64,000 nucleotides of DNA from Cytophagaceae bacterium ABcell3 (GTDB lineage Bacteria; Bacteroidota; Bacteroidia; Cytophagales; Cytophagaceae), in assembly GCA_030913385.1 (NCBI GenBank), contig CP133159.1, forward strand, positions 640,584 to 704,583, given 5' to 3'. Under the pieces are notes generated by a model that saw nothing but the letters and a program-made list of their open reading frames with translations, made no database searches and was not told where the DNA came from. A program made the translations under genes and the position numbers. Below, in pieces: positions 27,746 through 61,155 of this stretch; positions within the stretch are counted from its first letter, which is position 1, and every line of letters begins with the position of its first letter.

Positions 27746-28657
27746 CTACCCATGCTTGATCACCTTGTGATGGCGGTGCTTGTGCCCAGGTTCCCATATT
27801 ATACGGGTAAACATACTCATTCGTTCGTTTTCTCTGAAAGCAGGAATGCCAGCAACGATACCTATTAGGAAGTTGTCCGTAATTCCCAACCTCATTTGTG
27901 GCCTTATGGTCATATCAAAGTCGCCTGGTTGCCAAATCTTATTAAACTCTATACCAATAAAGTTTCTAGTTCCAGGCAACATATAATGTAAGTTCGTATT
28001 TACATGATAATGAGCATGTAGGTGCGGGTCGCCAAAGTGTTGATAGACCATTGGGCCTGTGTACACAAGCGTATGGTAATTCATGCCCCAACGTTTTGCT
28101 GCAATGAAAAACGGGTTATAAACATTGCCGGTGAGCAGTGGATTGCCAAACTCACGAAATGTGTTAAATTCGACCTCGTTAATATACCCTAAAGCCATTG
28201 AGGTCTTCCATTTTTCATTCACTAAAAAAGTCCATTGAACAGCCGTTTTAAGCCCGTTGATTTTGGACCCAGGGGCGTCACTTGCCCTTTGCCCGTTTTT
28301 GTATGAGCCGATAATGGTAAATGGCACTTCTATTTCAAAACCCACTCGGTCAAAAGGCGCCCATTCATATTCTACGAGTGCTTCATATTCGTCGTAAGAA
28401 ACATTATCTGTCATACCAAAGGCCACGTTCCATTCCTTTTCACCTTTGCGTGCGCCCAGGTCACGAATAAGGTCTATGTAAAGAGGCTCGGCATGCAGTA
28501 TTTTGGCCGGTTCTTTTCTTTCTTCTACTTCGTAAATGTATAGACTGTCTACTATTCTACTGTCCAAATAAACAGTATCGGATTGGGCTATAGCTGCTGC
28601 ACTGCATAAGCTTAGCAAAGTGCCTAGGATGCACTTTTTTACATTGTTGCCCCTCAT
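27746..28657 (-). CDS. Secreted / outer-membrane protein, hypothetical
   Basis: N-terminal signal peptide ending ...SAAAIAQS, with Gly/aromatic-rich beta-strand-like content. Confidence 0.45.
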   Translation of the reverse strand: MRGNNVKKCILGTLLSLCSAAAIAQSDTVYLDSRIVDSLYIYEVEERKEPAKILHAEPLYIDLIRDLGARKGEKEWNVAFGMTDNVSYDEYEALVEYEWAPFDRVGFEIEVPFTIIGSYKNGQRASDAPGSKINGLKTAVQWTFLVNEKWKTSMALGYINEVEFNTFREFGNPLLTGNVYNPFFIAAKRWGMNYHTLVYTGPMVYQHFGDPHLHAHYHVNTNLHYMLPGTRNFIGIEFNKIWQPGDFDMTIRPQMRLGITDNFLIGIVAGIPAFRENERMSMFTRIIWEPGHKHRHHKVIKHG

Positions 28658-29100
28658 TGTGTTGGTTGCGTATCTATGGTGCTATGGTTTGTTAAAAATA
28701 CTTTTTTGTAGTAAAGCAGAAAGCTTTTGGGCAAGGAGGCGACTGCCTTTGTATGCCCGCATATACGGTTTCATTTTATTTTGAGATGGTGTTTTTTTTA
28801 AATGCTAACGCCGTTGTTTGATAATTTTGTTAAGCTAGTAAATATTTATTTTTTTATTGAAATTGTATAGTTGGATAGACGGTTTTAATAGAATTTTAAT
28901 TTCTATACTTTGTTTATCGTCAGTGGATTGCAAGGAAGAGCGTTGCTGTTAATGAATGGCTACTTTTAGGATTAATATGGGGTAGTTGTTGCTATAGTTT
29001 TAAAAAAGTAGAGCCCGTTTATATACGGACTCCGATAACATGTTTTTATTAGTTTTATGCGTAAAGTTTGGCTAAAGAGCCCTCTCGTTACCTAGTGGAC

Positions 29101-29340
29101 TTATAGGTCATGGCCGCCTATGGCTATAATGCGTAAGTTTTCAGCTTCGTACCCTGTTTCACGAAATATTTTTATAATCACATCAGGAGTAATTTCTTCT
29201 CCTGATACACTAAGGATGTTTTCTTCACTTTCCAAATCGAGCTTCCACTTGCTTATCAACTCCTCTTTGTCTAGCGCTGTTGATACTTTTGCAAGGTCTT
29301 TTTCATTGTCTATATTGGTCTTGAATTTCAATATATTCAT
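29101..29340 (-). CDS. Small HMA-like domain protein lacking CxxC
   Basis: MNILKFKTNI...GYEA has the ferredoxin-like HMA pattern but no metal-binding cysteines. Confidence 0.3.
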   Translation of the reverse strand: MNILKFKTNIDNEKDLAKVSTALDKEELISKWKLDLESEENILSVSGEEITPDVIIKIFRETGYEAENLRIIAIGGHDL

Positions 29341-29404
29341 AGTGATTAGTCTTTTTATATTAACCCTTTGCGTGAGGCAAATGTTAACGTTATTGTGGTA
29401 TTAT

Positions 29405-29590
29405 TAACAGCCCCCACCCCACCTCTTGTTGGTGTTTTCACCAACAAACCTTCCCGCAAAGGCTGCACCCAACATTTTAGCTATGAAAAGATGGGCAGCA
29501 TATAAAGCCCGAGCAAAAAGAGGGGAATGATTTCTTGCATTTAAAGCCATTAACGCCAACGGTGCAGCCATATATAATATTCCATAACCT
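29405..29590 (-). repeat. Palindromic-hairpin repeat unit (reverse orientation)
   Basis: CCCCCACCCCACCTCTTGTTGGTGTTTTCACCAACAA..., about 80% identical to 29715..29905. Confidence 0.75.
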
Positions 29591-29714
29591 CATTGTATAC
29601 TGTGGCCTTTTTGCCTATCTATTGAGGTGTTTTTGTTCCGCCCCTATCGGGGCTAAATGCTGATTTCAGACTCTTTCTACCGATATTCCGTCCCTATCGG
29701 GACTGGTAAAAGTT

Positions 29715-29905
29715 GTTTAATTTCCCTCCTCCCTCTTGTTGGTGTTTTCACCAACAAACCATCCCGCCTAGGCAGCACCCAACATTTTAGCTAATTAAGA
29801 TGGGCAACATATTAAGCCGAGCAGCAAAAAAAGGAAACATTTTCTGTCATTTAAAATCAATTATAGCGCCAACGGTGCGCAATATATAACAATGGGCAAT
29901 AGACA
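29715..29905 (-). repeat. Palindromic-hairpin repeat unit (reverse orientation)
   Basis: CCCTCCTCCCTCTTGTTGGTGTTTTCACCAACAAACCATCCCGC... Confidence 0.75.
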
Positions 29906-30282
29906 ACAGCCTTTTTAAAACCCCGAAGGGGCGCAATAAGAAAACGGTACCTTATAGGTAAAAATGGGGATATTATTTTCTTTAAGAATTTTCTTGGCAA
30001 CACCTATTTTGTCTATAATTATATTGTCCCTAAAAGGGCATTTAAGCTCCACTCCCCCCTTCAAGTGGTTATCAACCCTTGGAGGGGTTGAAAAAAGTTT
30101 TTTAGCTCAAAAAAATATTTTCTATTCCTGTTAAATTTTTTGAACAAAAGGTTTTGGTTGCCGTATAAATCATCGCTCAAAAGTTCGATTTGCCTTGCGT
30201 TACAGTAGGTCAACAAATAAAAATCCTCGTTCTGTTTGCGCATATTTTGCTTTTTATTAATTTAGGGCTTCTTTATTTAGCG

Positions 30283-30918
30283 ATGTTAGAAATATTCTCA
30301 GAATCACTTAAACCGGTCAATTTGCCGGGTACATTTATACTCATAATCGTCCTCTGCTATTGGATTGTTAATTTTTTAGGACTTTTTGATCTCGAAATGT
30401 TTGATACTGGAGATATCGAATCAGGCAAAGGAGGTACAGATACCGGCTCTGGTGGAATGGTTTCATCTGCCGCTGAATTTTTTCATTTCGGAGATGCTCC
30501 TGTGACAATTGTCATCAGTTTTTTTGCCCTTTTCTTCTGGGCAGGCTCATTGCTGACAAACCATTACTTGCACAATGAATTTATGCTGATCGCACTTTTG
30601 GTATATGTGCCTAATATTATTGTCAGCCTTTTATTAACTAAAATTTTCGTCAAGCCTGTATCAAAGCTTTACAGTAAACTGAAAAGTCAAGAGGCGCAGG
30701 TGGTAGACTTTTCTGGATCTGTTTGTACCGTAATTATTGGTTCGTCAGAGGGGCGCATGGGGCAGGGAGAGATAAACGAAAACGGTAATAGCTTCAGGGT
30801 GAATATCAGGGCTACTGCTGGAAATTCCTTGTCTAGGGGCGATACAGCTTTGCTTATTGAGGTAGGAGAAAACGGGGTTTACTTGGCCGAACCTTATGTT
30901 GAAACAATGCAATCTTAA
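30283..30918 (+). CDS. NfeD-like membrane protein (YuaF-like)
   Basis: N-terminal TM helices and a C-terminal OB-fold-like domain (GSVCTVIIGSSEGRMGQGEINENGNSFRVNIRATAG...ALLIEVGENGVYLAEP). It sits immediately upstream of the flotillin gene. Confidence 0.65.
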   Translation: MLEIFSESLKPVNLPGTFILIIVLCYWIVNFLGLFDLEMFDTGDIESGKGGTDTGSGGMVSSAAEFFHFGDAPVTIVISFFALFFWAGSLLTNHYLHNEFMLIALLVYVPNIIVSLLLTKIFVKPVSKLYSKLKSQEAQVVDFSGSVCTVIIGSSEGRMGQGEINENGNSFRVNIRATAGNSLSRGDTALLIEVGENGVYLAEPYVETMQS

Positions 30919-30953
30919 AACCGCAACATATTTACTAATCAATTACTAAAGTT

Positions 30954-33047
30954 ATGTTTGAAAGTGTAATTCTAACCACCATACTGGCGGTGGTGTTTTT
31001 CTTTTTTATGGCAGTAGCACTTGCCGTAAAATGGTACCACAAAATGCCTCAGGGCAAAGCTATTGTCCGTACTGGGGCTGGTGGTACAAAGGTCAGCTTT
31101 ACGGCCATGTTCGTCATCCCTGTCCTTCATAAGAAGGAAATTATGGATGTTTCGTTGAAAATGCTGGAAATTGGCAGGATGGGCAAAGACGGCCTTATCT
31201 GTAAAGACAACATAAGGGCAGACATTAAAGTGGCCTTTTTTGTAAGGGTAAATAAGGCGGTGGAAGACGTTATTAAAGTAGCGCAAACCATTGGTTGTGA
31301 CAGGGCTTCGCACAGGGAAACGCTAATTGCAATTTTTGATGCTAAGTTTTCTGAGGCACTTAAAACTGTCGGAAGAAGGTTTGATTTTGTGGACCTTTAT
31401 TCTGACCGTGATAGGTTTAAGCAGGAAATACTTGATATCATAGGTACTGAACTTAACGGATATCATCTAGATGATTGCGCCATTGACTATTTGGAGCAGA
31501 CGTCTATGGAGTTCTTGAAAGCAGATAATGTTCTTGACTCTCGCGGTATCAAAAAAATTACAGAGATAACTGCTGAGCAGAAAGTGCTGGCAAACCAGAT
31601 TAAGAGGGACGAAGAGAAGGTTATTAAAAAGCAAGATGTAGAGGCACAGGAAGCTATTCTTGAACTTAACAGACAGCTGACTGAAAGTGAAGAAAGGCAA
31701 CAGCGTGAAATCTCTATCATAAAGTCTCGTGAAAGAGCAGAAGCTGATAAAGTACAGTCTGAAGAAAAGCAAAAATCTGAACTTGCAAGGATCAGGTCTG
31801 AAGAAGAAGTGGCCATTGCCGAGGAGAATAAGAAGAGACAGGTGATTGTGGCAGCTAAGAGCAAAGAAAGAACAGAGGCTATTGAGACCGAAAGGGTAGA
31901 GAAAGATAAGATGTTGGAAGCAACCGAAAGAGAAAAACTGGTGTCTCTAGCTCAGATAGAAAAAGACAAAACGCTGGAAGAAGAGAAGAAAAACATGCAG
32001 GATGTGATCCGCGAGCGTGTTATGCTTGAGAAGACAGTGGTAGAACAAGAAGAGAAAATTAAAGACACTAAAGCGCTTGCTGAAGCAACTAGGCAGAAAG
32101 AAGTTGCCCTTACACTTGCATTGACAGAGGCTGAGGAGCAGAAGTTGAAAGAGATCAAGCAAGCCGAAGCGCACAAGCTATCTGCTGAACTTAAGTCTCA
32201 GCAACAACTGATAGAAGCAGAAGCAGATCAGAAAGCTTCTGAGAAACAAGCTGAAGCTAGAAGACAATTGGCAGAAGCGACTATCGTGGAAGAATCAACT
32301 GCTGGAATGGCAGAAGTGAAAGTAATTGAGGCGAAAGCTAACGCTATTGAGAAACAAGGTGCTGCTGAAGCCAATATTATGGAAAAGAAAGCTTTGGCAG
32401 AAGCAAGGGGCATCGAAGCAAAAGCTACGGCAGAAGAGAAGAAGGGTATGGCAGAAGCAAGTGTGCTAAACAAGAAAATGGTGGCCGAAGCCAAAGGTAT
32501 CGAAGAGAAAGCAAGTGCTATGAAGAAGCTAGACGGTGTTGGCAAAGAGCACGAAGAATTCAGGCTTAACCTTGAAAAACAAAAAGAAATCGAATTGGCT
32601 CAGATCAGTATCAATAAGGATATTGCTGATGCTCAGGCTAAGGTTATCGGAGAGGCGCTTAGGGCTGCCAAAATTGATATCGTTGGTGGTGAGACTATGT
32701 TCTTTGACAAGATCATTGGCTCTATTACTTCTGGTAAATCTGTAGATTCATTTGTTCAAAACAGCATCGTTGCCGGAGATGTGAAGAAGGCATTGTTGGG
32801 CGATGGAAGTAAAGGAAATATCATTCAGAGGATCCAGGAGTTTATGACTTCCAATGCTATTTCCATAGAAGATGTGAAAAACCTGACTATTACCGCATTC
32901 TTCGGAAAGCTGATGGCTCAGACTGTTGACCCTGACTTTAAAGCTTCTCTGTCTGCCTTGCTCGGTGATGCGCAGAAAGCTGGACTGGCCAACAAAACAG
33001 TTTCATCTCTTGGGCTTAACGGAGCTTCTGTTGCCAAAGAAAACTAG
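30954..33047 (+). CDS. Flotillin-like SPFH/band-7 protein with long EA-rich coiled coil
   Basis: N-terminal TM, an SPFH domain (AIVRTGAGGTKVSFTAMFVIPVLHKKEIMDVSLKMLEI) and an extended Ala/Glu/Lys-repeat coiled coil, as in FloT/YqiK. Confidence 0.8.
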   Translation: MFESVILTTILAVVFFFFMAVALAVKWYHKMPQGKAIVRTGAGGTKVSFTAMFVIPVLHKKEIMDVSLKMLEIGRMGKDGLICKDNIRADIKVAFFVRVNKAVEDVIKVAQTIGCDRASHRETLIAIFDAKFSEALKTVGRRFDFVDLYSDRDRFKQEILDIIGTELNGYHLDDCAIDYLEQTSMEFLKADNVLDSRGIKKITEITAEQKVLANQIKRDEEKVIKKQDVEAQEAILELNRQLTESEERQQREISIIKSRERAEADKVQSEEKQKSELARIRSEEEVAIAEENKKRQVIVAAKSKERTEAIETERVEKDKMLEATEREKLVSLAQIEKDKTLEEEKKNMQDVIRERVMLEKTVVEQEEKIKDTKALAEATRQKEVALTLALTEAEEQKLKEIKQAEAHKLSAELKSQQQLIEAEADQKASEKQAEARRQLAEATIVEESTAGMAEVKVIEAKANAIEKQGAAEANIMEKKALAEARGIEAKATAEEKKGMAEASVLNKKMVAEAKGIEEKASAMKKLDGVGKEHEEFRLNLEKQKEIELAQISINKDIADAQAKVIGEALRAAKIDIVGGETMFFDKIIGSITSGKSVDSFVQNSIVAGDVKKALLGDGSKGNIIQRIQEFMTSNAISIEDVKNLTITAFFGKLMAQTVDPDFKASLSALLGDAQKAGLANKTVSSLGLNGASVAKEN

Positions 33048-33055
33048 TAGCTCTA

Positions 33056-33097
33056 ACCTGAAATACCTAATAGAAAGTTCTATTACGTATTTCAGGT
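33056..33097. repeat. 42-bp near-perfect palindrome built from MITE terminal sequence
   Basis: ACCTGAAATACCTAATAGAAA|GTTCTATTACGTATTTCAGGT has arms 19/21 complementary. The right arm matches the MITE 3' terminus AGAAAGTTCTAATGCATGTTTCAGGT. It lies 9 nt after the flotillin stop. Confidence 0.8.
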
Positions 33098-33283
33098 TTG
33101 CATAAAAAATTATTTGGTCCGAATGGTGCGATAAGCCTTACTATGGGGCAAAAACACAGTAATCCAGCGTATTATTGCGGTAATGCTGATGTTTTGATGT
33201 AAAAGCTTTTGTCATTGTAATAGCTTTATTGCTCCTTCCGGATCAAAGACACTCCGGGGCTTTTAGTGCCGGAGTGTATATTA

Positions 33284-33452
33284 ATCCTGAAATATGCATT
33301 AGAACTTTCTGTTTCGTGTCAAAATAACTTCAAATCAGACGCTTAGCTCGTATTTGGTTTTTAACCATAGAACCACTATGCTTTGCAAATAAAATACGCT
33401 GATTTTTTGTTCTTTTGCCCTCATAACGAAATCTAATACATATCCAGGTTAA
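33284..33452 (-). repeat. MITE-like repeat copy B (TTAA-flanked)
   Basis: Reverse complement about 90% identical to 14952..15122; TTAA at both borders. Confidence 0.85.
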
Positions 33453-33499
33453 TTGTCCCTGATCATAAATATTTTCCGGAATTAAACTTTCACCCTTCC

Positions 33500-36400
33500 A
33501 TGGCAGAAGATAAAAACCCTTCAGCAGAAGCAGAAAAGAACAATAACAATATAGACGCCGGAGCTTACCGGATCCTCAGAAACCGATTGGATACGGCTGC
33601 GAACGACTTGAAGTCAAGGCTTGGCAAGCTGAACGAAGAGCGGAAATCTGTTTTCGGTTCAGTCGAAAGCCGTATCATCGGAAATGAAAGAGTTACTACC
33701 GAAAACAACTGCGTTGCCCGCGACATGATTTCTGTGGGGCATCACTTGCTTTTTGGATATAATGTCCACTTGGGACTTAAATCTGAAATGGAGGTAAGCG
33801 ATGTTTTTAATGTGTATGAGTTTAATGACAATTCTTTTCATGATGCAGGGCTTGAACTGATCAATGATAGCACATTTGAAAGCGACTTCAGAGACCTTTA
33901 TAAATATTATAAAAATACCGTTTTTGAGAAGTTTGCTGTCATAGGACCTTTTCTGTACATGGTTTTTCGTGTAGGGAAAAATAAAGGGGACATAAAAACT
34001 TTTAAATGGCTTATTGCTGAAAATGCCTTTCAATACCAGGGCAACCGCAGCGATCATGAGTTTAAATTTCCTCCTCAGTTTGAGTTTGAATGGGTAAGGA
34101 CTACCAGGGACAGCCATAGGAGTGGAAAACATCCGCATGTTTCTGTGTTGGACAAGGTATTTATAGAAACGGTGGGTGGCGATTTGACTATTAAGGTTGA
34201 AGATAATACCGACAATGGCGAAGGTATTCTTTCCGAGCCAGTAGAGGATAGGGACCAGAAACTTGATGATGCTGAAATTTACTATGCTGATCTTGACAAC
34301 ATTATTCTTCTAAAAATTAAACCTTTTAGGGAAAAAGAATTCCGGTATATAGTATATAACCATAGAATCAAGCAGGCAAAAAGGATAGACGCTATAAAGG
34401 ATTCCTGCGTGCTGCTACCGGACAACCATGGTATTATATTTTCTAAGGGATACTATCTCCAGACAGGTGAATATAAGCTGTTCGAGAACGAAGTTCAGGG
34501 GCTTCTTTTCGAAAAAATGATAGCTTCTCCCAATGGAGAGGATTTTATGTATGTGTTTTATAGCATGGATTACGGCGCTTATATTATGCTGCCGTACAAC
34601 CTTATAAATCAGCATGTGGAAAACCTAATTGTATGTCACGGTTATTCATTTTTTCCTGATGGCGAGCTGATTTATTTTACAGACCAAAGCAATGCTACAA
34701 AACATCATACCATTCAAATATGGCAGACACCGTTTGTAAGCCCAGATTATGTTCCTCCTGTTCAGTCGGACTGTTACCTGTTCAAGATTGGCAATAAGGA
34801 TATTGTCCGCGCTATGGCGGAATGTACCGAGCTTCTCAACCTTTTGCAGAAAGATGATGAATCTTATGCAAACTTGTATTATGATATAGTTAAACTGGCG
34901 GGCGATATTACAGATTCTTATTTTTGGATCAGGGAAGAAGCGGCCTTTAATTTGGCAGCAGCTTTAACTGTTGTCCGAAATACTGCCTCCTCTGCTATCG
35001 ATGAATTTCAGAAAGTCCAGCGGATTAAGCAAAACACCCGACAACAGACAGAGAAATATGCTGTAGAGGTTAAAGAAGTGCTGCGGGTTATTAGTAGGGA
35101 ACGTTTTGAAGATATTGATGCATTTGTGGGGGTTCTGTCAAAAATTAGGGGGCTACGGGGAGAGGTTATTTCTTTGAAAGACCTGAGGTATGCCGATACT
35201 AAATTTATAGAAGGGCTGGAAAAAGAGCTGGAGAAAGAAGCTGAAAAGGTTTCTGAAAGGTGCGTACGGTTCTTGCTCGACGAATCATCGCTTACGCCTT
35301 ATCATACCAAGCTGGAAGAGCAGAAGGAAGGCATTGAAAAGGCCACTAGGGTTGCAGAGGTTTCTGAAAGGATTGAAGAACTTAATGATATTTCTGCCGG
35401 GTTGGAAATGCTTATAGATACCGTTTCTAACCTTAAAATTGAGGACGCCACAGAAACAACCCGTATTATTGACAATATTTCCCTTATTTTCTCAGACTTA
35501 AACCAACTCAAATCAAGGGCAGGAAATATTAGGTCTGGTTTTAGGAAAGGGGAAAGCACCGCAGAGTTTCATGCGCAAATACGCTTGGTTGAGCAGGCCA
35601 TCGTAAACTATCTTGATCTGTGCGACACACCCGAAAAATGCGAGGAATACCTTACCCGCTTAATGGTCCAGTTGGAAGAATTAGAAGCAAAGTTTTCTGA
35701 CTTTGATGAATTCATTACTAACATTACTGAAAAGCGGGAAGAAGTATACGAGGCATTTGAAAACCGGAAACTCAACATTGTTGAAGCCCGAAACAATAGG
35801 GCCAACACGTTAATGTCCTCTGCTGACCGGATTTTGAAAGGTATTCAGAACCGGGTGGCCCGTTTTGAGGATACCAAAGATATCAATGGTTACTTTGCCT
35901 CTGATATGATGATCGACAAAGTGCGAGATATCATAAAAGAGCTTCAGCAACTGAATGACTCTGTAAAAGCGGATGAACTTCAGGGTAAGCTGAAAAATTT
36001 AAGAGAAGAAGCCTTAAGGCAACTGCGGGATAAGCAGGATATTTTTGTGGCAGGGGCCAACTTGGTTAAGTTTGGAGATCATCATTTCTCTGTTAATACC
36101 CAAGCACTCGATTTAACCATTGTCAACCGTAACCAGGAATTGTTTTATCACTTAACCGGAACGGGCTTTTTTGAAAAAGTGGAAGATGAAAGACTGGCTG
36201 GTACCAGAGAAGTTTGGGAGCAAACCGTTGTTTCAGAGAATCAACAAGTTTATAGAGGAGAGTATCTTGCCTATAAAATCTATACAGACGCAGTGGCTGG
36301 AAGAGGGGAAAGTAAAGATCATTTATATATGCTGACCATTCCTGACCTACAGGCTTATGTGCAGCAGTATATGGCACCAAGATATGCAGAAGCGTATGTA

Positions 36401-38416
36401 AAAGGGGTGCATGACAAAGATGCTGCCCTTCTGCTAAAGTCACTTCTTGAGCTGGACCACAATTCTGACTTGCTTCGCTATGATCCACTTACCAGGGCTT
36501 GTGGATATTTCTGTTGGAATTATGCCTTTGGTGTAGAGAGGCGTGCAATTTTGGATAAACGACTTAAAGGAACAGGTATCATATTGAAAGTCTTCCCTGA
36601 CCCTGGTTCTTTCAGCGAGGTCCGTGCAGACCTTGAAGCGGAGGTGAAAGCTGTACTTGCTAAAAACGAGCTTTTTGCAGAAGTTTCATGTGCTCAGGTG
36701 GCGGCTTATCTTTTTGATGAATTGGTACGAAGCAATACCTTTATACTTAGCCATGAGGCCGAGGTACTTTATAAAAACTTTACCCAGTATCTCGAAAAAA
36801 GCCGGACCAAAGAATTGCTGGAGTCGTCTTTGGAAATGCTGAAAGACAATTGTGAAGAGCAGTTCATACTAGCCCGTAACTGGTTACATGCTTTTATAAA
36901 GAACAAAGAAGGTCAGGAGCAGCTTAAAGAATTTGCGGACGAAGCTACTTTGTTGTTGCTAAATAAAGATGAGCAATGGAATATTGTTAAGGCTTCTCTA
37001 CAGGTAACCCTTGAAGGTTTCTCCGGTAACCACGCTGTAGTGGAAGACGGAAAATACCACTTACATTATAACAAGTTCCTTAATAAAATGCGGCATTATG
37101 AATCTCATACTGTGCCGCTTTTCGAAAGGTATATTAAGGCCAAGAACAAGGCGGTTGATGAAAAGAAAGCCAGCCTAAGGTTGCAGGAGTTCCTGCCAAA
37201 AGTCATGAGTTCTTTTGTGCGTAACAGACTTATTGATGAAGTATACCTTCCTTTAATAGGGGCTAATTTTGCTAAACAATTGGGTGCCGCCGGCGATAAC
37301 AAACGTACAGACAATTCCGGTATGCTTTTGCTGGTATCGCCTCCGGGTTATGGAAAGACCACGCTTATGGAGTACATTGCCAGTCGATTGGGTATTATTT
37401 TCATGAAAATAAACGGACCGGCTCTTGGCAATAGGGTTACCTCCCTCGATCCAGTCGAAGCTCCAAATGCAGGAGCACGTGAGGAAATAGAAAAGCTTAA
37501 TTTAGCTTTTGAAATGGGCGATAATGTCATGATTTATGTTGATGACATTCAGCATTGTAGTGCTGAGTTCCTGCAAAAGTTCATTTCCCTTTGCGATGCC
37601 CAACGTAGGATTGAAGGCGTGTACAAAGGTAGGTCAAAAACTTATGATTTTAGGGGTAAGAAGGTCTGTGTGGTAATGGCGGGTAACCCATATACTGAAA
37701 CGGGTGAGAAGTTCCGTATCCCTGACATGCTTGCCAACAGGGCTGATACATATAACCTTGGTGATATTATTGGCGATAAAGCTGAAGCATTCAGGTTGAG
37801 TTATATTGAAAATAGTATGACCTCTAACACTACGCTGAATAAACTGTCAAATCGTAGTGCGAAGGATATTTATACCTTTATGCAACTAGCCGAAAACGGT
37901 GACCGGGACGACCTAAGCTTTGAAGGAAACTATTCTCCAGAAGAAATTAGTGAAATTGTTTCTGTCCTTAAAAAGCTGTTTGCTGTAAGGGAGGCTGTGT
38001 TGAAAGTAAACCTTCAATATATTTATTCTGCCTCTCAGTCTGACGATTACCGTGAGGAGCCAGCCTTTAAGATGCAAGGTTCATACCGGAACATGAATAA
38101 AATGGCAGAACAGGTAGTTCCGGTTATGAATGACGAGGAGCTAGTAACTTTGATCCGGACGCACTATAACAACGAGTCGCAAACCCTTACCACTGACGCT
38201 GAAGCCAACCTTCTTAAGTTTAAGGCTATTAATAATTGGTTAACGGAAGAAGAAGAGGCGCGGTGGAATGTCATAAAACAAACGTTCCAGAAAAACCAGA
38301 AGTTTAGAGGCGCAGGAGACAATCAGGTAGGCCTGCTTGTTTCGCAGCTTAGTGTTCTCGGCGACGGTGTGGACGGTATTCGAAAGGCGATTGAATATAG
38401 AGGAAAGGGTGAATAA
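33500..38416 (+). CDS. Giant (1638 aa) protein with C-terminal MoxR/McrB-like (helix-2-insert clade) AAA+ ATPase domain
   Basis: Walker A LLLVSPPGYGKTTL, Walker B VMIYVDDIQHCSAEFLQ, sensor-1 VVMAGNP, and an Arg in RIPDMLANRAD. About 1250 aa of upstream sequence has no motif I recognise, plus coiled-coil segments. Confidence 0.7.
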   Translation: MAEDKNPSAEAEKNNNNIDAGAYRILRNRLDTAANDLKSRLGKLNEERKSVFGSVESRIIGNERVTTENNCVARDMISVGHHLLFGYNVHLGLKSEMEVSDVFNVYEFNDNSFHDAGLELINDSTFESDFRDLYKYYKNTVFEKFAVIGPFLYMVFRVGKNKGDIKTFKWLIAENAFQYQGNRSDHEFKFPPQFEFEWVRTTRDSHRSGKHPHVSVLDKVFIETVGGDLTIKVEDNTDNGEGILSEPVEDRDQKLDDAEIYYADLDNIILLKIKPFREKEFRYIVYNHRIKQAKRIDAIKDSCVLLPDNHGIIFSKGYYLQTGEYKLFENEVQGLLFEKMIASPNGEDFMYVFYSMDYGAYIMLPYNLINQHVENLIVCHGYSFFPDGELIYFTDQSNATKHHTIQIWQTPFVSPDYVPPVQSDCYLFKIGNKDIVRAMAECTELLNLLQKDDESYANLYYDIVKLAGDITDSYFWIREEAAFNLAAALTVVRNTASSAIDEFQKVQRIKQNTRQQTEKYAVEVKEVLRVISRERFEDIDAFVGVLSKIRGLRGEVISLKDLRYADTKFIEGLEKELEKEAEKVSERCVRFLLDESSLTPYHTKLEEQKEGIEKATRVAEVSERIEELNDISAGLEMLIDTVSNLKIEDATETTRIIDNISLIFSDLNQLKSRAGNIRSGFRKGESTAEFHAQIRLVEQAIVNYLDLCDTPEKCEEYLTRLMVQLEELEAKFSDFDEFITNITEKREEVYEAFENRKLNIVEARNNRANTLMSSADRILKGIQNRVARFEDTKDINGYFASDMMIDKVRDIIKELQQLNDSVKADELQGKLKNLREEALRQLRDKQDIFVAGANLVKFGDHHFSVNTQALDLTIVNRNQELFYHLTGTGFFEKVEDERLAGTREVWEQTVVSENQQVYRGEYLAYKIYTDAVAGRGESKDHLYMLTIPDLQAYVQQYMAPRYAEAYVKGVHDKDAALLLKSLLELDHNSDLLRYDPLTRACGYFCWNYAFGVERRAILDKRLKGTGIILKVFPDPGSFSEVRADLEAEVKAVLAKNELFAEVSCAQVAAYLFDELVRSNTFILSHEAEVLYKNFTQYLEKSRTKELLESSLEMLKDNCEEQFILARNWLHAFIKNKEGQEQLKEFADEATLLLLNKDEQWNIVKASLQVTLEGFSGNHAVVEDGKYHLHYNKFLNKMRHYESHTVPLFERYIKAKNKAVDEKKASLRLQEFLPKVMSSFVRNRLIDEVYLPLIGANFAKQLGAAGDNKRTDNSGMLLLVSPPGYGKTTLMEYIASRLGIIFMKINGPALGNRVTSLDPVEAPNAGAREEIEKLNLAFEMGDNVMIYVDDIQHCSAEFLQKFISLCDAQRRIEGVYKGRSKTYDFRGKKVCVVMAGNPYTETGEKFRIPDMLANRADTYNLGDIIGDKAEAFRLSYIENSMTSNTTLNKLSNRSAKDIYTFMQLAENGDRDDLSFEGNYSPEEISEIVSVLKKLFAVREAVLKVNLQYIYSASQSDDYREEPAFKMQGSYRNMNKMAEQVVPVMNDEELVTLIRTHYNNESQTLTTDAEANLLKFKAINNWLTEEEEARWNVIKQTFQKNQKFRGAGDNQVGLLVSQLSVLGDGVDGIRKAIEYRGKGE

Positions 38417-38463
38417 TACTGATGTGTTAGGAGAGAGACTGAGGTGGTATCCTGTTCCGGTTA

Positions 38464-38883
38464 TTGTTTTTTATAAACTGGAACTATTTATTATATTCAG
38501 ATAGTCAGGAACAAAAAACACATTTGGACATGCCTATTAAAAGGTTTTTCAAAATATTGCAGGCCAACCTCAACCAAGGAAAGGAAGGGTATACCTACAT
38601 TCCTCCAGAGGAGCCTCCTAAGGAAAAGAGCTTTTATGAGCCCAAAACCGTGAGCAATGAAAATCCTGTGGATGTGAAGGAGGCGGGCTATTATTCCAAT
38701 CTTGAGTTGCCTTATGGAGCGGGATTTGATGAAATTAGGAAAAACTATAGGCGTTTAATGAAGCAATATCATCCTGACAAGTTTCATAATGATTCGGGAA
38801 GGAAAGCTTATGCAGAAGAGGTAAGCAGGTTGTTAATCGAGGCATACACTTATTTTGAGGATAAATTCTCAAAAAAAACTTGA
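38464..38883 (+). CDS. Small J-domain protein (DnaJ-like co-chaperone)
   Basis: C-terminal J-domain FDEIRKNYRRLMKQYHPDKF... The start may be the Met at 38531. Confidence 0.75.
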   Translation: MFFINWNYLLYSDSQEQKTHLDMPIKRFFKILQANLNQGKEGYTYIPPEEPPKEKSFYEPKTVSNENPVDVKEAGYYSNLELPYGAGFDEIRKNYRRLMKQYHPDKFHNDSGRKAYAEEVSRLLIEAYTYFEDKFSKKT

Positions 38884-38933
38884 TATTTTAAAGGAAAAGA
38901 GGAAATTTACTAAGTATTTAAATTTGAGCAAAT

Positions 38934-39659
38934 ATGTTTAATTGGTTAAAAAGGCTTTTTATGATAGGTGGAGCCGAAGCACATAAAGCACTGGACAAAC
39001 TTGAAGACCCTGTCAATATGATAGAGCAAGGCATTCGTGATCTGAAAGAAGACCTGAACAAAGGACTTAAGAGCCTTGCGGAAGTGAAAGCCCTTGCTAT
39101 TAAAGCTCAAAATGACCAAAAGTCTCAAACCAATTCTGCCAGGGAATATGAAGAGAAAGCGGTTTTGTTGTTGAAGAAAGCCCAAACCGGTGGACTAGAC
39201 CCTACAGAAGCTGACAGGTTGGCGAGCGAAGCCCTTATGAAGCAGCAGGCTATTGCCAAACAGGTTGAGGCGCAAAATGCGACCATTAAGCAGTACCAGG
39301 AGATGGCTGCACAAATAGAAAGTAACAATAACCTTCTCAAAAAGAAGATTGACAACTATGAATCCGAACTGGGGTCTTTAAAAGCACGTGTTAAAGTGGC
39401 TAAAAGTACAAAAGACTTTAACAAATCCATGGCCGGCCTTGACTCTAATGAAACCCTTCGGATGTTAGAGAGAATGAAGGACAAAATATCTCACGAAGAA
39501 GCCCTTGCCCAATCCTATGGCGCTATTGCCGAAAGCAAAACTTCTATAGACGATCAGATAAACCGTGCTTTAGAAGGAGCTACCGTAAACCCTGAGGTGA
39601 AGGATTCTTTAGCTGAACTAAAAGCAAAACTGGGTATGGATAAAAAGCTTGAGGAGTAG
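38934..39659 (+). CDS. pspA: PspA/IM30 (Vipp1) family protein
   Basis: MFNWLKRLF...LDKLEDPVNMIEQGIRDLKEDLNKG is the canonical PspA N-terminus; 241 aa, all coiled coil. Confidence 0.85.
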   Translation: MFNWLKRLFMIGGAEAHKALDKLEDPVNMIEQGIRDLKEDLNKGLKSLAEVKALAIKAQNDQKSQTNSAREYEEKAVLLLKKAQTGGLDPTEADRLASEALMKQQAIAKQVEAQNATIKQYQEMAAQIESNNNLLKKKIDNYESELGSLKARVKVAKSTKDFNKSMAGLDSNETLRMLERMKDKISHEEALAQSYGAIAESKTSIDDQINRALEGATVNPEVKDSLAELKAKLGMDKKLEE

Positions 39660-39687
39660 AGACGTAACTTTATAATAGTGTAGTTTA

Positions 39688-39722
39688 ACGCAGGGAGGCT
39701 GTTGGTTTTCCTGCGTTTTTTG
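39688..39722 (+). terminator. Rho-independent terminator of the pspA operon
   Basis: ACGCAGGGAGGCTGTTGGTTTTCCTGCGTTTTTTG. Confidence 0.8.
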
Positions 39723-40499
39723 ATTATTCTGTAGTATGCAATAGAACTTTCCCCTGTCCTTTTTTTCAGCACTTCTACTTGTAAGAATTGATGAATTTGC
39801 CACACCTAACGAGGTTTTAGATAATCGAATAAACTCTTTGAAACTAAGTTATTTTTAGATAATTTAATATCTGTATTTAAACGTTTACAAACGTTTGATA
39901 AAAGTTTGCAAACGGTTTTGTTGTTGGAAATCAACGTATTGCTGTTTTGGACAATAAGAAATTATAAAGGAGATATATCCTGAATTTTGGGGATATACAA
40001 TCGTTATGGCCAATTTATGAAATACAGACTTTTACATATTATCTTTCTGTTGCTGATATTAATTGGATGTGATTTTAAAACATCCAGCGAATATTTTAAT
40101 GATGGAAATATGAAGTCAAATAATGGAGATTATGAAGGTGCTATAAAAGATTTTACTTTGGCAATTAATAAAAATCCTAATGACTATGAATCATATACTA
40201 ATAGAGGAGCTGATTATGCAGCAATTGGAAGGTATAAAGAAGCAATAAGTGATTATAATAAAGCTGTAGAATTAAATCCCAGCAACATAATGGCATACTT
40301 CAATAGAGGTAATTTAAAATCAAAATTAAATGATTTTAATGGTGCAATTGAAGATTATAATCAGGCAATTAAACTTAAGGGGGGAGAAAACCTTTATGTG
40401 GAAATTCATGATAATGATTTCTTAGGTATTCGCTCAACTGACGTAAGAATGGAAAATATCAGATTACAAAGTAAGCCTTCGGGCAAGTGCATGTTGATT

Positions 40500-41954
40500 T
40501 TATAATTTTACCCACTTCCCGGGTAGCAGTTCTTCCAGCCTGTTTACCGGGTGATTGTCTATTCTTTCCAGAACATCTTTCATCCATTCCAATGGGTTTA
40601 CACCGTTGATTTTGCAGCTTGCCACAAGCGAGTATATTTGGGCGGCTCTCTGGGCAGCATCATGTGAACCGGCAAACAGATAATTTTTCCTTCCTATGGC
40701 TACTGGCCTTATTGAGTTTTCCACCAGATTGTTATCTATCTCCAGCTTGCCATCCTCAAGATATATGGAGAGCCTTTCCCATCTGCTCAAGGAGTATTCG
40801 AGCGCCTTTCCAATAGGACTCCTAGGGGCAATATTAGGGTACAGGTTTTTCATCCATTCTTCCAGGTCGTCCAATGTTGTTTTTGCATCAAGCCTTGATT
40901 CCTTTCTTTCTTCAAAAGACATCCCGGCCTCCCTTGCTTTACGCTCAATATCATATAACTTCTGAAATTCTTTCAAGGCATGTTCTGCATTTTCTTTGTC
41001 ATTGTCCAATGCTTTCTCAAACATCCTTCTGGCATGTGCCATACAATGGAACAATGTTATGCCCTTGATGTTGGCAAACATATCATATACGTTATACCCG
41101 TCACATTGCAGGTATCCCTGAAAACCCTTCAGTATATCTGATGGCCCTTCGCTCCCGCGCCCGGGACGATAGTCGAACAGCACCTGTTTCCCGACAGGGT
41201 CATAATATACCCAGTAATACCCCCGGTGGATTTTACTTTTTTTATCCTTGTCGAGAACTTTTATGGGTGTCTCGTCTGCCATCAGGTAACCGGCTTGCAG
41301 TGTCCTCTTTTTATGCAGTTCGTATAAGATTTTAAGCTTGTTTACCCCTTGTTTTACCCAGTCTGACATTGTGGAAGAAGGAAAATTAAGGCCTTCTCTC
41401 TTAAATATCTGTATCTGGCGGTATAAAGGAAGGTGGTCAACATACTTGCTGACAACAAGGAAAGCGACAAGGCTTGCTCCGGCTATCCCTTTCTCTATCG
41501 CCCTGTATGGCAATTCTCCAATGGCAACACCCTCCCCTTCAGGTTTTGCGTATTTCGGGCGTACAATTTTGCGCACATGAAACTTTCCGGTGGTATATTC
41601 AAGAACCTCTGTCACCTCTTCCCCAATTTTTTTCATGCCTGAGGTATCTTCTTCAGGCTCAACAACCTCTTCCACCCTTGGTACATGTGCCGGTATAGGG
41701 AGGCGGCCCGGGTGCTTGCGGGCTGTTTCTTTTTTGACACGCTTAAACCTGACGACCTCCTCTTTTTCAGGGGCAGTTGCCTGCTCTTCACCAAGTCCCA
41801 GGTTTAACTGTTCCGGTGCGGACGAAGGCACAAAACGCTCGCTTTTGGTGCCATATATGAGGCGCTTCAGCTCTTTGAGCTCAAACTTCAAAAGTGCGAT
41901 CTCGGACATCGCCTCCTCATATTTTTCTTTATAGTCTATACCTTCGGCAAGCAT
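40500..41954 (-). CDS. IS66 family transposase (TnpC)
   Basis: 484 aa; LQCDGYNVYDMF and AHARRMF are typical of the IS66 DDE transposase. Confidence 0.85.
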   Translation of the reverse strand: MLAEGIDYKEKYEEAMSEIALLKFELKELKRLIYGTKSERFVPSSAPEQLNLGLGEEQATAPEKEEVVRFKRVKKETARKHPGRLPIPAHVPRVEEVVEPEEDTSGMKKIGEEVTEVLEYTTGKFHVRKIVRPKYAKPEGEGVAIGELPYRAIEKGIAGASLVAFLVVSKYVDHLPLYRQIQIFKREGLNFPSSTMSDWVKQGVNKLKILYELHKKRTLQAGYLMADETPIKVLDKDKKSKIHRGYYWVYYDPVGKQVLFDYRPGRGSEGPSDILKGFQGYLQCDGYNVYDMFANIKGITLFHCMAHARRMFEKALDNDKENAEHALKEFQKLYDIERKAREAGMSFEERKESRLDAKTTLDDLEEWMKNLYPNIAPRSPIGKALEYSLSRWERLSIYLEDGKLEIDNNLVENSIRPVAIGRKNYLFAGSHDAAQRAAQIYSLVASCKINGVNPLEWMKDVLERIDNHPVNRLEELLPGKWVKL

Positions 41955-42010
41955 GTTGCAAAGATAAATAATATACCTATGTAGGTGGTATTAGGAAAAA
42001 AAGAATAAGT

Positions 42011-42370
42011 TTAAAGATTTCCAGGACTTTTATATCTTTTGCGGTGCCTGACCGACTCAAGGGAAATCCCTTGTAAGACCAGTTGCAATACCGAGGCGGA
42101 TATTTCAGATTTGGTCACATTTTTGCAATGGACAGGTATTTCATAAGTCCCTCTTTCAAGGCGTTTGTGATACATACTGAAACCGTCGCCTTCCCATAAA
42201 AGGAGCTTGACATGGTTTCGGTTTCGGTTCAGGAAAATAAAAATGTCCCCGTTCATGGGGTTTTCGTTAAGTTTGCTCCTTACAATACCTGATAGGCTGT
42301 CAAACCCTTTCCGCATGTCGGTTTTGCCCGAATAGAGAAAGTACCTGCACTGGTGAGACAATGAAAGCAT
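42011..42370 (-). CDS. IS66 accessory protein TnpB (Orf2)
   Basis: GKTDMRKGFDSLSGIV...FIFLNRNRNHVKLL. Confidence 0.8.
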   Translation of the reverse strand: MLSLSHQCRYFLYSGKTDMRKGFDSLSGIVRSKLNENPMNGDIFIFLNRNRNHVKLLLWEGDGFSMYHKRLERGTYEIPVHCKNVTKSEISASVLQLVLQGISLESVRHRKRYKSPGNL

Positions 42371-42372
42371 GG

Positions 42373-42672
42373 CTAGCTGACTAATTGTTTAACAAATGAT
42401 GGATCTGCCATGCCGTGGAATATGACCTTGGCACCGGAAGGAAAGACAACTTCCATGTTGCCGGCCGCAGGGTTAATTTCATCAGGGCTGCTTACTTTCA
42501 GAGGGACAAATCCGGTACCGGGCTCCTCTGTTCTATATTTGCCGCACCAATAGATGAATTTTTGATAATTGATGTTCTGCCGAAGGCTAAATTCTTTTTT
42601 ACTGATACCGCTTTGTTGCCAGAGCTGATAAAGCTCACGCATCTGGTCAGATACTTTTGTGTTTGTTGCCAT
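42373..42672 (-). CDS. IS66 Orf1 (TnpA, HTH)
   Basis: 99-aa protein upstream of tnpB inside the IS boundaries. Confidence 0.7.
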   Translation of the reverse strand: MATNTKVSDQMRELYQLWQQSGISKKEFSLRQNINYQKFIYWCGKYRTEEPGTGFVPLKVSSPDEINPAAGNMEVVFPSGAKVIFHGMADPSFVKQLVS

Positions 42673-44221: not shown

Positions 44222-45271
44222 ATGAGCGAAATAGTAGCCTATAAAGATTTTTATAAAGAAATAATTGATACGATTAATGCCAGAAGATATAAGGCATATA
44301 AATCGTTGAACAGGCATCACATAGAACACAATTTTGAACTTGGTGAAATAATTGTAAAACATCAGGAAAAACAAAAGTGGGGACAATCAATAGTTGAGAA
44401 ACTTTCTAAAGATATTACCAAGCAAATTGATGGACTAACAGGTTATTCGCCTCAGAATCTATGGAAAATGCGTCAATTTTATCTTGAATATAGAGAGAAA
44501 ACTGTACTGTATGAATTAGCCAAACAAATTCCGTGGGGACAAAATATGCTAGTTCTCCATCAGGTAAAAGACGACAATGAACGAAGGTACTATTTAGAAG
44601 CAACAGCAAGGTTGGGGTGGAGTCGAGCTGTTTTGTTAAATCAAATTAAAGCAGATGCTTATAAGCATCATGTGTTAGATAAGAAGTTAAGCAATTTTGA
44701 AGCTGCGTTACCGTCACATCTATCAGAACAAGCAAATGAAGCTTTAAAAAGTGAATATAATCTTGATTTTCTCGGAATTACCAAACCTGTCCATGAACGA
44801 GAAATTGAAAATAGACTAATTGAAAATATTCGCGATTTATTACTTGAGTTAGGATATGGATTTAGTTTTATAGGAAATCAGTATCGGTTAACATTGAACA
44901 ACAAAGAGTATTTTATTGACTTGCTTTTTTATCACCGGTTTTTGAAATGCTTGGTTGCAATTGAATTAAAAACTGTTGAATTTGAGCCTGAATTTGCAGG
45001 AAAAATGAATTTTTATCTTGAACTTCTCGACAGTAAGGAAAAGCAAGCAGATGACAATCCTTCAATTGGGATTATTCTATGCCCGACAAAAGACGATATT
45101 GAGGTTGAATTTGCTCTGAGGTCTAGTAATAAACCCATTGGTGTATCTGAATATAAATTAACTCATGAACTTCCTGAAAATCTAAAAGGAAAAGTTCCTA
45201 CTTCGAAAGAATTAAAACAAATGCTAACAATAGCTATTAGTAATGCAGGCGGTTCAGCTAAAGGAATATAA
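44222..45271 (+). CDS. YhcG/DUF1016-family PD-(D/E)xK nuclease-like protein
   Basis: The C-terminal YFIDLLFYHRFLKCLVAIELK core matches how I remember the DUF1016 family. Confidence 0.6.
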   Translation: MSEIVAYKDFYKEIIDTINARRYKAYKSLNRHHIEHNFELGEIIVKHQEKQKWGQSIVEKLSKDITKQIDGLTGYSPQNLWKMRQFYLEYREKTVLYELAKQIPWGQNMLVLHQVKDDNERRYYLEATARLGWSRAVLLNQIKADAYKHHVLDKKLSNFEAALPSHLSEQANEALKSEYNLDFLGITKPVHEREIENRLIENIRDLLLELGYGFSFIGNQYRLTLNNKEYFIDLLFYHRFLKCLVAIELKTVEFEPEFAGKMNFYLELLDSKEKQADDNPSIGIILCPTKDDIEVEFALRSSNKPIGVSEYKLTHELPENLKGKVPTSKELKQMLTIAISNAGGSAKGI

Positions 45272-45330
45272 TACTCCCCAATTTTCAGACCACTACTTTA
45301 ATTGATTTATAATCGTTAAATTAGTGAAAT

Positions 45331-45624
45331 ATGAAAGGAAAAAGAAGAAAGTTTACTGCCGCATTTAAAGCACAAGTTGCTGTTGAAGCTTTAAAAGAAA
45401 GAGATAGTTTGGCAGATTTGGCAAGTCGTTTTGAGGTTCACCCTAATATGATCAGTAAGTGGAAGCAAGAGTTTCTTGAAAGGTCCTCAGCAGTCTTTGA
45501 GAAAGACAGTTCAGAGCAAAATCAGGAGCCTTCTATTGATCCTGAAAAGCTTTATGCAAAAATTGGCAAGCTTGAACTGGAGAATGACTTTTTAAAAAAA
45601 AGCTTAGGAAAGTTGGGGAAGTAA
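45331..45624 (+). CDS. IS3 family transposase OrfA (HTH)
   Basis: MKGKRRKFTAAFKAQVAVEAL...; leucine-zipper end. Confidence 0.85.
   Translation: MKGKRRKFTAAFKAQVAVEALKERDSLADLASRFEVHPNMISKWKQEFLERSSAVFEKDSSEQNQEPSIDPEKLYAKIGKLELENDFLKKSLGKLGK
45592..45599 (+). other. A7G -1 programmed frameshift motif joining orfA to orfB
   Basis: TTTTAAAAAAAAGC. The -1 frame reads ...KKLRKVGEVKSLCSMVDTDHK, continuous with OrfB. Confidence 0.7.
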
Positions 45625-45638
45625 AATCTCTTTGTTCT

Positions 45639-61099: not shown

Positions 61100-61155
61100 A
61101 CTTCGTTTCCTTAAACGATTACAAAAAAAAAAATTAAAGTCGCTTAAATAACACA

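Follow-up and report, generated by a model that had tools for sequence, protein, structure and literature searches.

An operon combining PspA, a flotillin, a YqiJ protein and an AAA+ ATPase has already been described computationally (Ravi et al., mSystems 2024, PMC11237479). In that work, the BIG-like ATPase was labeled "Betapropeller+Coiled-coil+AAA-ATPase", and abbreviated versions of the operon lacking the CesT/Tir-PspA dyad were reported to be widespread (PMC11237479). Linkage between PspA and band 7/FloT-NfeD was noted by Popp et al. in 2022; according to a 2025 review, a Vps4-like ATPase "appears absent in bacteria". Here, we describe a locus of this kind from Cytophagaceae bacterium ABcell3, within a 64,000-nucleotide stretch of contig CP133159.1 (assembly GCA_030913385.1, positions 640,584 to 704,583, forward strand), referred to throughout as the window. 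BIG is our working name for the protein of 1638 amino acids (aa) encoded at 33500-38416 of the window. Bacterial PspA and Vipp1 are ESCRT-III homologues, flotillins form large membrane cages, and we know of no energy-consuming remodeller in bacteria for PspA/Vipp1 or flotillin. The BIG family is the obvious candidate to supply the so far missing energy for remodelling PspA and flotillin assemblies in bacteria, because its members are giant, very strongly conserved AAA+ proteins whose genes neighbour those of flotillin and PspA in numerous phyla. We consider a functional link between BIG and the flotillin/PspA module very probable, and give the narrower proposal, that BIG is an ATP-driven remodeller of flotillin/PspA assemblies, about an even chance of being right. 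The flotillin/PspA-ATPase linkage itself has been known computationally since 2024; the window adds a dissected example and a locus variant with a J-protein-PspA pair.

The window shares with the operon of Ravi et al. the three Pfam regions of the ATPase, the YqiJ/YuaF and band-7/flotillin neighbours, and a linked PspA gene. It differs in having no CesT_Tir-PspA pair upstream and no divergent XRE-S24 regulator; no CesT_Tir, XRE-S24 or PLD gene was found anywhere in the window. PspA instead lies downstream of BIG, directly after a gene for a J-domain protein, which occupies the position that CesT_Tir takes beside PspA. The window also differs from the published operon in having a 452-bp spacer with an inverted repeat between flotillin and BIG.

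To place the window in a wider context, 47 genomic loci were fetched and searched with the window neighbours, counting those loci with enough flank. In this sample, which is made up mostly of related Flavobacteriia so that the counts are not independent observations, flotillin adjoins BIG in 41 of 43 informative loci, the YqiJ-like protein is present in 40 of 41 and a PspA gene in 37 of 41. The linkage extends over at least seven phylum-level lineages (Bacteroidota, Planctomycetota, PVC, Verrucomicrobia, Kiritimatiellaeota, Desulfobacterales, and Spirochaetota), and PspA was confirmed by Pfam in loci from Planctomycetota, PVC, Verrucomicrobia, and Kiritimatiellaeota. Additional loci show a linkage consistent with these counts. 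Because BIG is nearly always encoded beside flotillin, YqiJ, and PspA, it probably powers the remodelling of membrane-repair scaffolds. Genomic context (flotillin, YqiJ, PspA, and the J-protein) holds most of the functional information on BIG, and went unmentioned in the initial annotation of this DNA, which had been made from the sequence alone.

The usual order in Bacteroidota is a divergent XRE-S24 regulator followed by CesT_Tir - PspA - YqiJ - flotillin - BIG, and the gene order given for Dokdonia donghaensis in Table S3 of Ravi et al. (PMC11237479) equals that of our Flavobacteriia loci. Some lineages retain YqiJ-flotillin-BIG alone, and the genes downstream of BIG differ from lineage to lineage. 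Two metagenomic proteins appear to be fusions, though each is a single case in which an assembly or gene-calling artefact is possible: in P0198, flotillin residues about 192-606 run into BIG from about residue 183, and P0155 carries an NfeD1b_N domain N-terminal to DUF3686. The divergent regulator has HTH_3 and Peptidase_S24 domains (LexA/CI-like) and was seen in L007 (2580-3338, - strand), L050 (1384-2175, - strand), and about 30 other Bacteroidota loci. It is possibly self-cleaving, and its conservation suggests stress-triggered derepression of the CesT-PspA-YqiJ-flotillin-BIG operon. In a Fulvivirgaceae locus (L054, 13077-17203), the genes after BIG are DUF4178, DUF350, and a spermine-synthase-like gene, which typify the second of the CesT-PspA operon classes in Ravi et al., so that both PspA-associated gene sets stand side by side there.

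The stable synteny bears on the idea that BIG serves in defence against phages or in some other biological conflict. As a big NTPase whose propeller resembles a sensor domain, BIG would suit such a role; PIN or PLD genes lie near some BIG loci, and the window carries IS66, rve integrase, and type I restriction-modification genes elsewhere. PADLOC, however, gave no meaningful match for BIG and its neighbours (the best was mad8, E=0.01, 13 bits, covering the P-loop only), and high conservation across phyla with stable synteny to housekeeping-type membrane genes is unlike fast-evolving, patchy defence islands. We regard a conflict role as very improbable.

We then examined BIG itself, which is encoded by an intact frame running from ATG to stop, as the initial annotation had it.

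33500..38416, + strand: BIG, a soluble DUF3686-DUF7902-AAA+ protein (open reading frame call, Pfam, homologues, hydropathy scan)

The protein is called soluble because the hydropathy scan shows no transmembrane segment in it. The NCBI entry "DNA repair ATPase" from Cytophagaceae bacterium ABcell3 matches it at 100% identity, and 4600 of the 8000 candidates scored proved to be relatives, which together place the reading frame far beyond chance; antisense frames within it (33659-34138, 35302-35559, and 36123-36488) are most likely spurious. Among the matches listed (n=120), alignments are collinear end to end, with 97-100% query coverage and 53-63% identity. Pfam places DUF3686 (PF12458) at aa 36-475 (E=3.5e-185, 616.2 bits against a cut-off of 25, profile 1-448 of 448) and DUF7902 (PF25472) in the helical middle region at aa 597-676 (E=7e-25, 87.4 bits against a cut-off of 26), so that the earlier view of the C-terminal domain as the only placeable one does not hold. 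These sequence matches make BIG a full and typical member of the DUF3686/DUF7902/AAA+ family, a widespread, already catalogued family that is auto-named "DNA repair ATPase". The outcome that would have overturned the initial annotation, a match to a characterised family of established function, was not obtained.

An exhaustive HMMER scan of aa 1-1200 against 1.84 billion cluster representatives matched 1401 clusters at E<=1e-3, 985 at <=1e-10, and 447 at <=1e-30. Full-length relatives of about 1600-1900 aa keep the architecture down to about 26% identity, and Bacteroidota and Planctomycetota members are about 54% identical over their whole length (~1600 aa), which is unusually high for proteins of such size.

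The database name proposes that BIG acts in DNA repair. Its support is the name alone (Pfam describes DUF3686 as "ATPase involved in DNA repair", and NCBI gives "DNA repair ATPase"). No DNA-binding, nuclease, or SMC-like domain was found in BIG, and its surroundings hold no conserved repair genes, every conserved neighbour being a membrane protein. We have therefore rejected this reading as scarcely credible. The name is inherited from Pfam and misleading, as nothing we found supports that role, and it hides the BIG family from the membrane field. Our literature search returned no paper mentioning DUF3686, and no functional study of a BIG-family ATPase was found in the literature, including in combination with flotillin or MoxR.

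The genes and elements immediately upstream of BIG are as follows.

30283..30918, + strand: YqiJ/YuaF-type membrane protein of 211 aa with a C-terminal OB-like domain (hhalign, PDB match)
30954..33047, + strand: flotillin, a YqiK-type SPFH protein of 697 aa (hhalign)
33069..33313, no strand: imperfect inverted repeat in the flotillin-BIG spacer, with 31-nt arms 183 nt apart (repeat search)

Pfam (including Band_7 and Flot) and NCBIfam gave no match to either the 697-aa or the 211-aa protein, even at E=10. Since these searches were blank, the identities were tested by hhalign against E. coli YqiK and YqiJ. The flotillin family profile (A1) matched YqiK, which itself carries Band_7 and Flot in Pfam, with a probability of 99.95% (E=9e-38); against the PDB, it gave a weak match to QmcA alone (E=0.027). 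The flotillin, deposited as "flotillin family protein" WMJ72112.1, has an N-terminal transmembrane helix (aa 1-29), an SPFH domain, and a Glu/Ala-rich coiled coil. Subfamily A1 comprises proteins of about 660-726 aa that are 41-59% identical to the window protein across phyla (tblastn), and domain-based surveys will overlook it. The profile of the 211-aa family (A2) matched YqiJ at 95.2% (E=2.7e-8), and its sole PDB match is B. subtilis YuaF (2K14, E=0.007). This protein, deposited as "DUF1449 family protein" WMJ72111.1, has three hydrophobic segments.

The 452-bp spacer between flotillin and BIG is unusually long, the other loci examined having mostly about 25-290 bp. The arms of its inverted repeat (33069-33099 and 33283-33313) are 84% complementary and single-copy in the window, and the repeat may represent either a regulatory structure or a small insertion. 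Rfam gave no match across 28600-40600. Upstream of the yqiJ-like gene, a ~800-bp non-coding stretch contains two 62-nt direct repeats (29422-29483 and 29732-29793) that are 94% identical, each with a palindrome TTGGTG...CACCAA. A sigma-70 promoter scan performed no better than on shuffled sequences, the sigma-70 model being unsuited to Bacteroidota.

Downstream of BIG, three further features complete the locus.

38530..38883, + strand: small J-domain protein, 117 aa from an internal ATG, HPD intact (Pfam DnaJ, E=2.8e-10)
38934..39659, + strand: PspA/IM30 (bacterial ESCRT-III superfamily), 241 aa, WMJ72115.1 (Pfam PspA_IM30, E=3.5e-38)
39687..39717, + strand: strong terminator-like hairpin with a 14-bp stem and T-run, 3' of PspA (terminator scan)

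The ATG at 38530 is probably the real start of the J-domain gene, and the resulting protein aligns with a 117-aa homologue in L048. In 33 Bacteroidota loci PspA precedes YqiJ, and these PspA genes share 42-54% identity with the one in the window. No terminator-like site was found on the + strand between BIG and PspA, and the strong hairpin that closes PspA suggests that BIG, the J-domain gene, and PspA form one transcription unit. A CesT/Tir-PspA dyad was not recovered from the window, in which PspA is present downstream and a CesT_Tir homologue was not found.

Small J-domain proteins of 117-153 aa are recurrent PspA neighbours, being found in the window, L048/L049, and L058-L064. The direct J-PspA pairing occurs in the window and L048, and a metagenome scan with the J-protein yielded seven strong relatives, all of which (7/7) lie in a J - CesT_Tir - PspA triad; no flotillin or BIG gene was found within 7 kb of these seven triads. 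In the closest relative examined (60% identity), a J-PspA-PLDc_2 set is convergent to BIG. The J-protein carries an N-terminal amphipathic motif that reads LKRLWRILEAN in relatives and IKRFFKILQAN in the window (hydrophobic moment muH 0.60). DnaJ is not mentioned in the comparative-genomics literature on the phage shock protein (PSP) system that we checked. The pairing resembles the chloroplast CDJ2-HSP70B-CGE1/VIPP1 system, in which a dedicated J-domain co-chaperone is likewise paired with a PspA/VIPP1-family protein and the CDJ2-HSP70B system assembles and disassembles VIPP1 oligomers (PMC10602608). It differs from the CDJ2 system in being purely genomic in the window, and in the very small size (117 aa) and separate amphipathic N-terminus of the J-protein. 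A small PLDc_2 gene (HKD phospholipase D-like) accompanies the PspA dyad in L048 (13504-13980, - strand) and L050 (902-1381, - strand), and a PLDc_2 gene beside the PspA dyad was noted for Proteobacteria by Ravi et al. (PMC11237479).

The C-terminal part of BIG contains a single AAA+ module, for which we list the predicted elements.

37286..37759, + strand: AAA+ alpha/beta core, aa 1263-1420 (Pfam, alignment, model)
37340-37363, + strand: Walker A SPPGYGKTT, aa 1280-1288, with K1286 (motif search)
37532-37549, + strand: Walker B, YVDDIQH at aa 1346-1352, with D1348-D1349 (motif search)
37601-37657, + strand: pre-sensor-1 beta-hairpin, aa 1368-1386 (AlphaFold2 model)
37676-37699, + strand: sensor-1, MAGNPYTE at aa 1393-1400, with N1396 (motif search)
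37721-37747, + strand: Arg-finger candidate R1414, in PDMLANRAD at aa 1408-1416 (motif search)
37760..38413, + strand: helical lid and C-terminal helices, aa 1421-1638 (alignment, model)
38075-38092, + strand: sensor-2 candidate QGSYRN, aa 1526-1531, of which QGSYR (aa 1526-1530) is invariant (motif search, alignment)

All four motifs quoted in the initial annotation (Walker A, Walker B, sensor-1, and the Arg-finger candidate) were located in BIG, along with the sensor-2 candidate, which that annotation had not listed. When 159 family members were aligned with MAFFT, little or no variation was seen in Walker A, DDIQH, AGNPYTE, PDML-NRAD, and QGSYR; on this alignment, the AAA+ site is under strong selection, and the degeneracy that had been raised as a concern was not found. 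An AlphaFold2 model of aa 1201-1638 (predicted local distance difference test [pLDDT] score 79.8, about 90 in the core) has the canonical strand order of an AAA+ fold, with the Walker B strand at aa 1343-1348. The C-terminal AAA+ call was thus broadly right. Walker B (37541-37546, aa 1348-1349) reads DD and not DE, the second acidic residue being Asp in place of the usual catalytic Glu in 159/159 members, a family trait that appears compatible with hydrolysis, perhaps slow.

Two strands at aa 1370-1375 and 1378-1383, strongly conserved in sequence, form a modelled hairpin that we identify as the pre-sensor-1 hairpin because it lies between helix 3 and the sensor-1 strand. The proposed "helix-2 insert DDIQHCSAEFLQKFISLCDAQRR", spanning DDIQH...QRR, was rejected under that label, as the model places Walker B and helix 3 there, running into the pre-sensor-1 hairpin. 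At the helix-2 position itself, the model has a conserved loop of 18 residues (aa 1306-1323) that contains short helical turns and no predicted hairpin.

Assigning the module to a clade was less direct. Pfam gave weak matches to AAA, AAA_22, RuvB_N, and AAA_5 at the C-terminus. AAA_5 (24.7 bits against a cut-off of 22, profile 2-125 of 139) is the only Pfam model aligned through sensor 1, yet PF00004 scores 28.6. A phmmer search of the AAA region against the PDB matched Rix7, p97, and RuvB around Walker A alone. Comparison by hhalign with E. coli RavA, ClpX, Lon, and FtsH did not discriminate, RavA being no better than the others, so the clade assignment rests on the predicted fold. The closest counterparts of the modelled fold are the MoxR chaperones CbbQ and NorQ, and MoxR, midasin, and dynein are its nearest structural neighbours. 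MoxR ATPases are normally partnered by a VWA protein; no VWA family was found among the neighbours in the window, L048, L050, L051, L053, and L054.

Compared with MoxR proteins (CbbQ, NorQ, RavA; AAA_5), BIG has Walker A (GYGKT) and, in the model, the pre-sensor-1 hairpin, but lacks the VWA partner gene, has a DD Walker B, carries ~1260 extra N-terminal residues, has no helix-2 beta-hairpin in the model, and shows weak profile similarity to E. coli RavA. We therefore use the wording "MoxR-like", because two MoxR hallmarks, the DE Walker B and the VWA partner, are missing and comparison at the sequence level does not decide; judged by its modelled fold, BIG is MoxR-like and not a MoxR family member. 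Dynein and midasin further differ in concatenating six modules, where BIG has one AAA+ module per chain and no MIDAS or microtubule-binding domain.

The resemblance to CbbQ and NorQ raises the alternative that BIG acts as a MoxR-like chaperone on a membrane protein complex other than flotillin or PspA, which it would mature, extract, or quality-control, the flotillin/YqiJ microdomain merely recruiting it to the membrane. Third-party substrates are known for AAA+ enzymes organised by SPFH cages, as with FtsH in HflK/C, and YqiJ-flotillin-BIG clusters without an adjacent PspA exist (L002, L004, L023, L051, and L053). No conserved candidate client gene lies nearby, the genes downstream of BIG varying by lineage; nor is there a VWA adaptor in the neighbourhoods named above, and the apparent fusions join BIG directly to parts of flotillin (P0198) and NfeD (P0155). 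We consider it unlikely, and keep remodelling of flotillin/PspA assemblies as the preferred role.

The N-terminal region was modelled separately (AlphaFold2, aa 1-1200, 50 homologues, pLDDT 81.6, predicted template modeling score 0.49), giving the following layout.

33518..33655, + strand: long N-terminal helix, aa 7-52 (AlphaFold2 model)
33671..34729, + strand: predicted beta-propeller, aa 58-410, core of DUF3686 (Pfam, AlphaFold2, Foldseek)
34775..36040, + strand: long-helix region, aa 426-847 (Pfam, AlphaFold2)
35288-35527, + strand: DUF7902 within the long-helix region, aa 597-676 (Pfam)
36065..36961, + strand: small beta unit, aa 856-893, and helical domain, aa 919-1154 (AlphaFold2 model)

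The domain at aa 58-410 is modelled as all-beta (pLDDT about 85-90), with 26 strands, enough for ~6-7 blades, and on this model is a beta-propeller. The long-helix region includes helices at aa 485-533, 650-707, and 736-786, the longest being 58 residues. A beta-rich N-terminus followed by long coiled coils, as first proposed from sequence, agrees well with this model. The stretch at 36065..36961 is the least conserved part of BIG in the 159-member alignment. A phmmer search of PDB sequences with aa 1-1200 found no match. Foldseek against the PDB matched the beta domain to the clathrin terminal domain and linker, Nup155, IFT-A, CyRPA, prolyl oligopeptidase, and Ski8, all modestly (E about 1e-5, TM scores about 0.1-0.2). 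A clathrin/nucleoporin-like "protocoatomer" likeness was considered and judged too weak to build on.

These matches bear on a second alternative, in which BIG is mainly a structural scaffold or coat built from propeller and long helices, and the AAA+ module a slow, nucleotide-dependent assembly switch. The best Foldseek matches for aa 1-1200 are indeed coat proteins (clathrin heavy chain, Nup155, and IFT-A), and the invariant DD Walker B would be expected to slow hydrolysis. The scores are weak and driven by a generic propeller, however, and no variation occurs in the Arg finger, sensor 1, sensor 2, or pore hairpin, as expected of a working ATPase ring. A mainly structural role for BIG therefore seems to us quite improbable.

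Returning to ATP-driven remodelling, we can postulate a four-part membrane-maintenance module consisting of a YqiJ/YuaF membrane protein, a YqiK-type flotillin, PspA, and BIG as the cytoplasmic motor subunit. The C-terminal MoxR-type AAA+ modules would assemble into a ring, as the conserved Arg finger implies catalysis between subunits, and every subunit would project a long helical arm with a beta-propeller at its tip. At the inner membrane, the propellers could dock on PspA polymers, on the cytoplasmic flotillin cage, or on both, and ATP turnover, acting via the conserved pore-facing hairpin, would assemble, disassemble, or recycle the scaffolds during membrane stress. Such a role would be analogous to that of Vps4 on ESCRT-III or FtsH inside HflK/C, with a different AAA+ clade. 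In the ABcell3 genome, the dedicated J-domain protein adjacent to PspA would bring DnaK as a second remodelling input.

Like Vps4, BIG is an AAA+ protein genomically coupled to an ESCRT-III-superfamily gene (PspA) and has an N-terminal protein-binding region ahead of one AAA+ module; both are proposed polymer-remodelling ATPases. A reading of BIG as a Vps4 homologue was rejected, since it belongs to another AAA clade and has no MIT domain, and the two may instead be functional analogues. The FtsH-HflK/C system likewise couples an SPFH-family protein to an AAA+ machine at the inner membrane, with NfeD/YqiJ-type accessory proteins accompanying the SPFH genes. BIG differs from FtsH in having no protease domain and no transmembrane helix, in being cytoplasmic, and in its AAA+ clade.

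Several points weigh against BIG as a remodelling motor. The invariant DD Walker B may mean slow, switch-like hydrolysis, not a processive motor. The family profile reaches a probability of 17.8% against E. coli RavA in hhalign and 92% against ClpX, and the VWA partner expected of MoxR proteins is missing from the neighbourhoods listed above. The Flavobacteriia-heavy sample means that the synteny counts overstate the number of independent observations; flotillin is missing in two Desulfobacteraceae loci (L030 and L033), and four informative loci have no adjacent PspA. The substrate of BIG is guessed from synteny alone, and the predicted models behind ring formation and propeller docking are of monomers. 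We accordingly put forward the most specific version only tentatively, as possible but doubtful: that BIG is the missing ATP-driven remodeller of PspA polymers and/or an "uncoating" ATPase of flotillin cages, a Vps4 analogue forming a MoxR/dynein-type ring with six propeller-tipped arms, which in some Bacteroidota would act alongside a J-protein/DnaK pathway paralleling CDJ2-HSP70B-VIPP1.

Finally, we note other features in the rest of the window. A YhcG PDDEXK nuclease and an rve-family integrase are encoded at 44222-46445, and a type I restriction-modification pair at 58706-62802, with an HsdR-like gene at 58706-61099 and HsdM at 61156-62802. An IS66-family element on the - strand (40500-42672) comprises a 484-aa transposase and two small upstream reading frames (42011-42370 and 42373-42672). 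The element lies a short way past the PspA terminator, directly against the 3' end of a TPR gene (39987-40505), and may have taken the place of genes that follow PspA in relatives.

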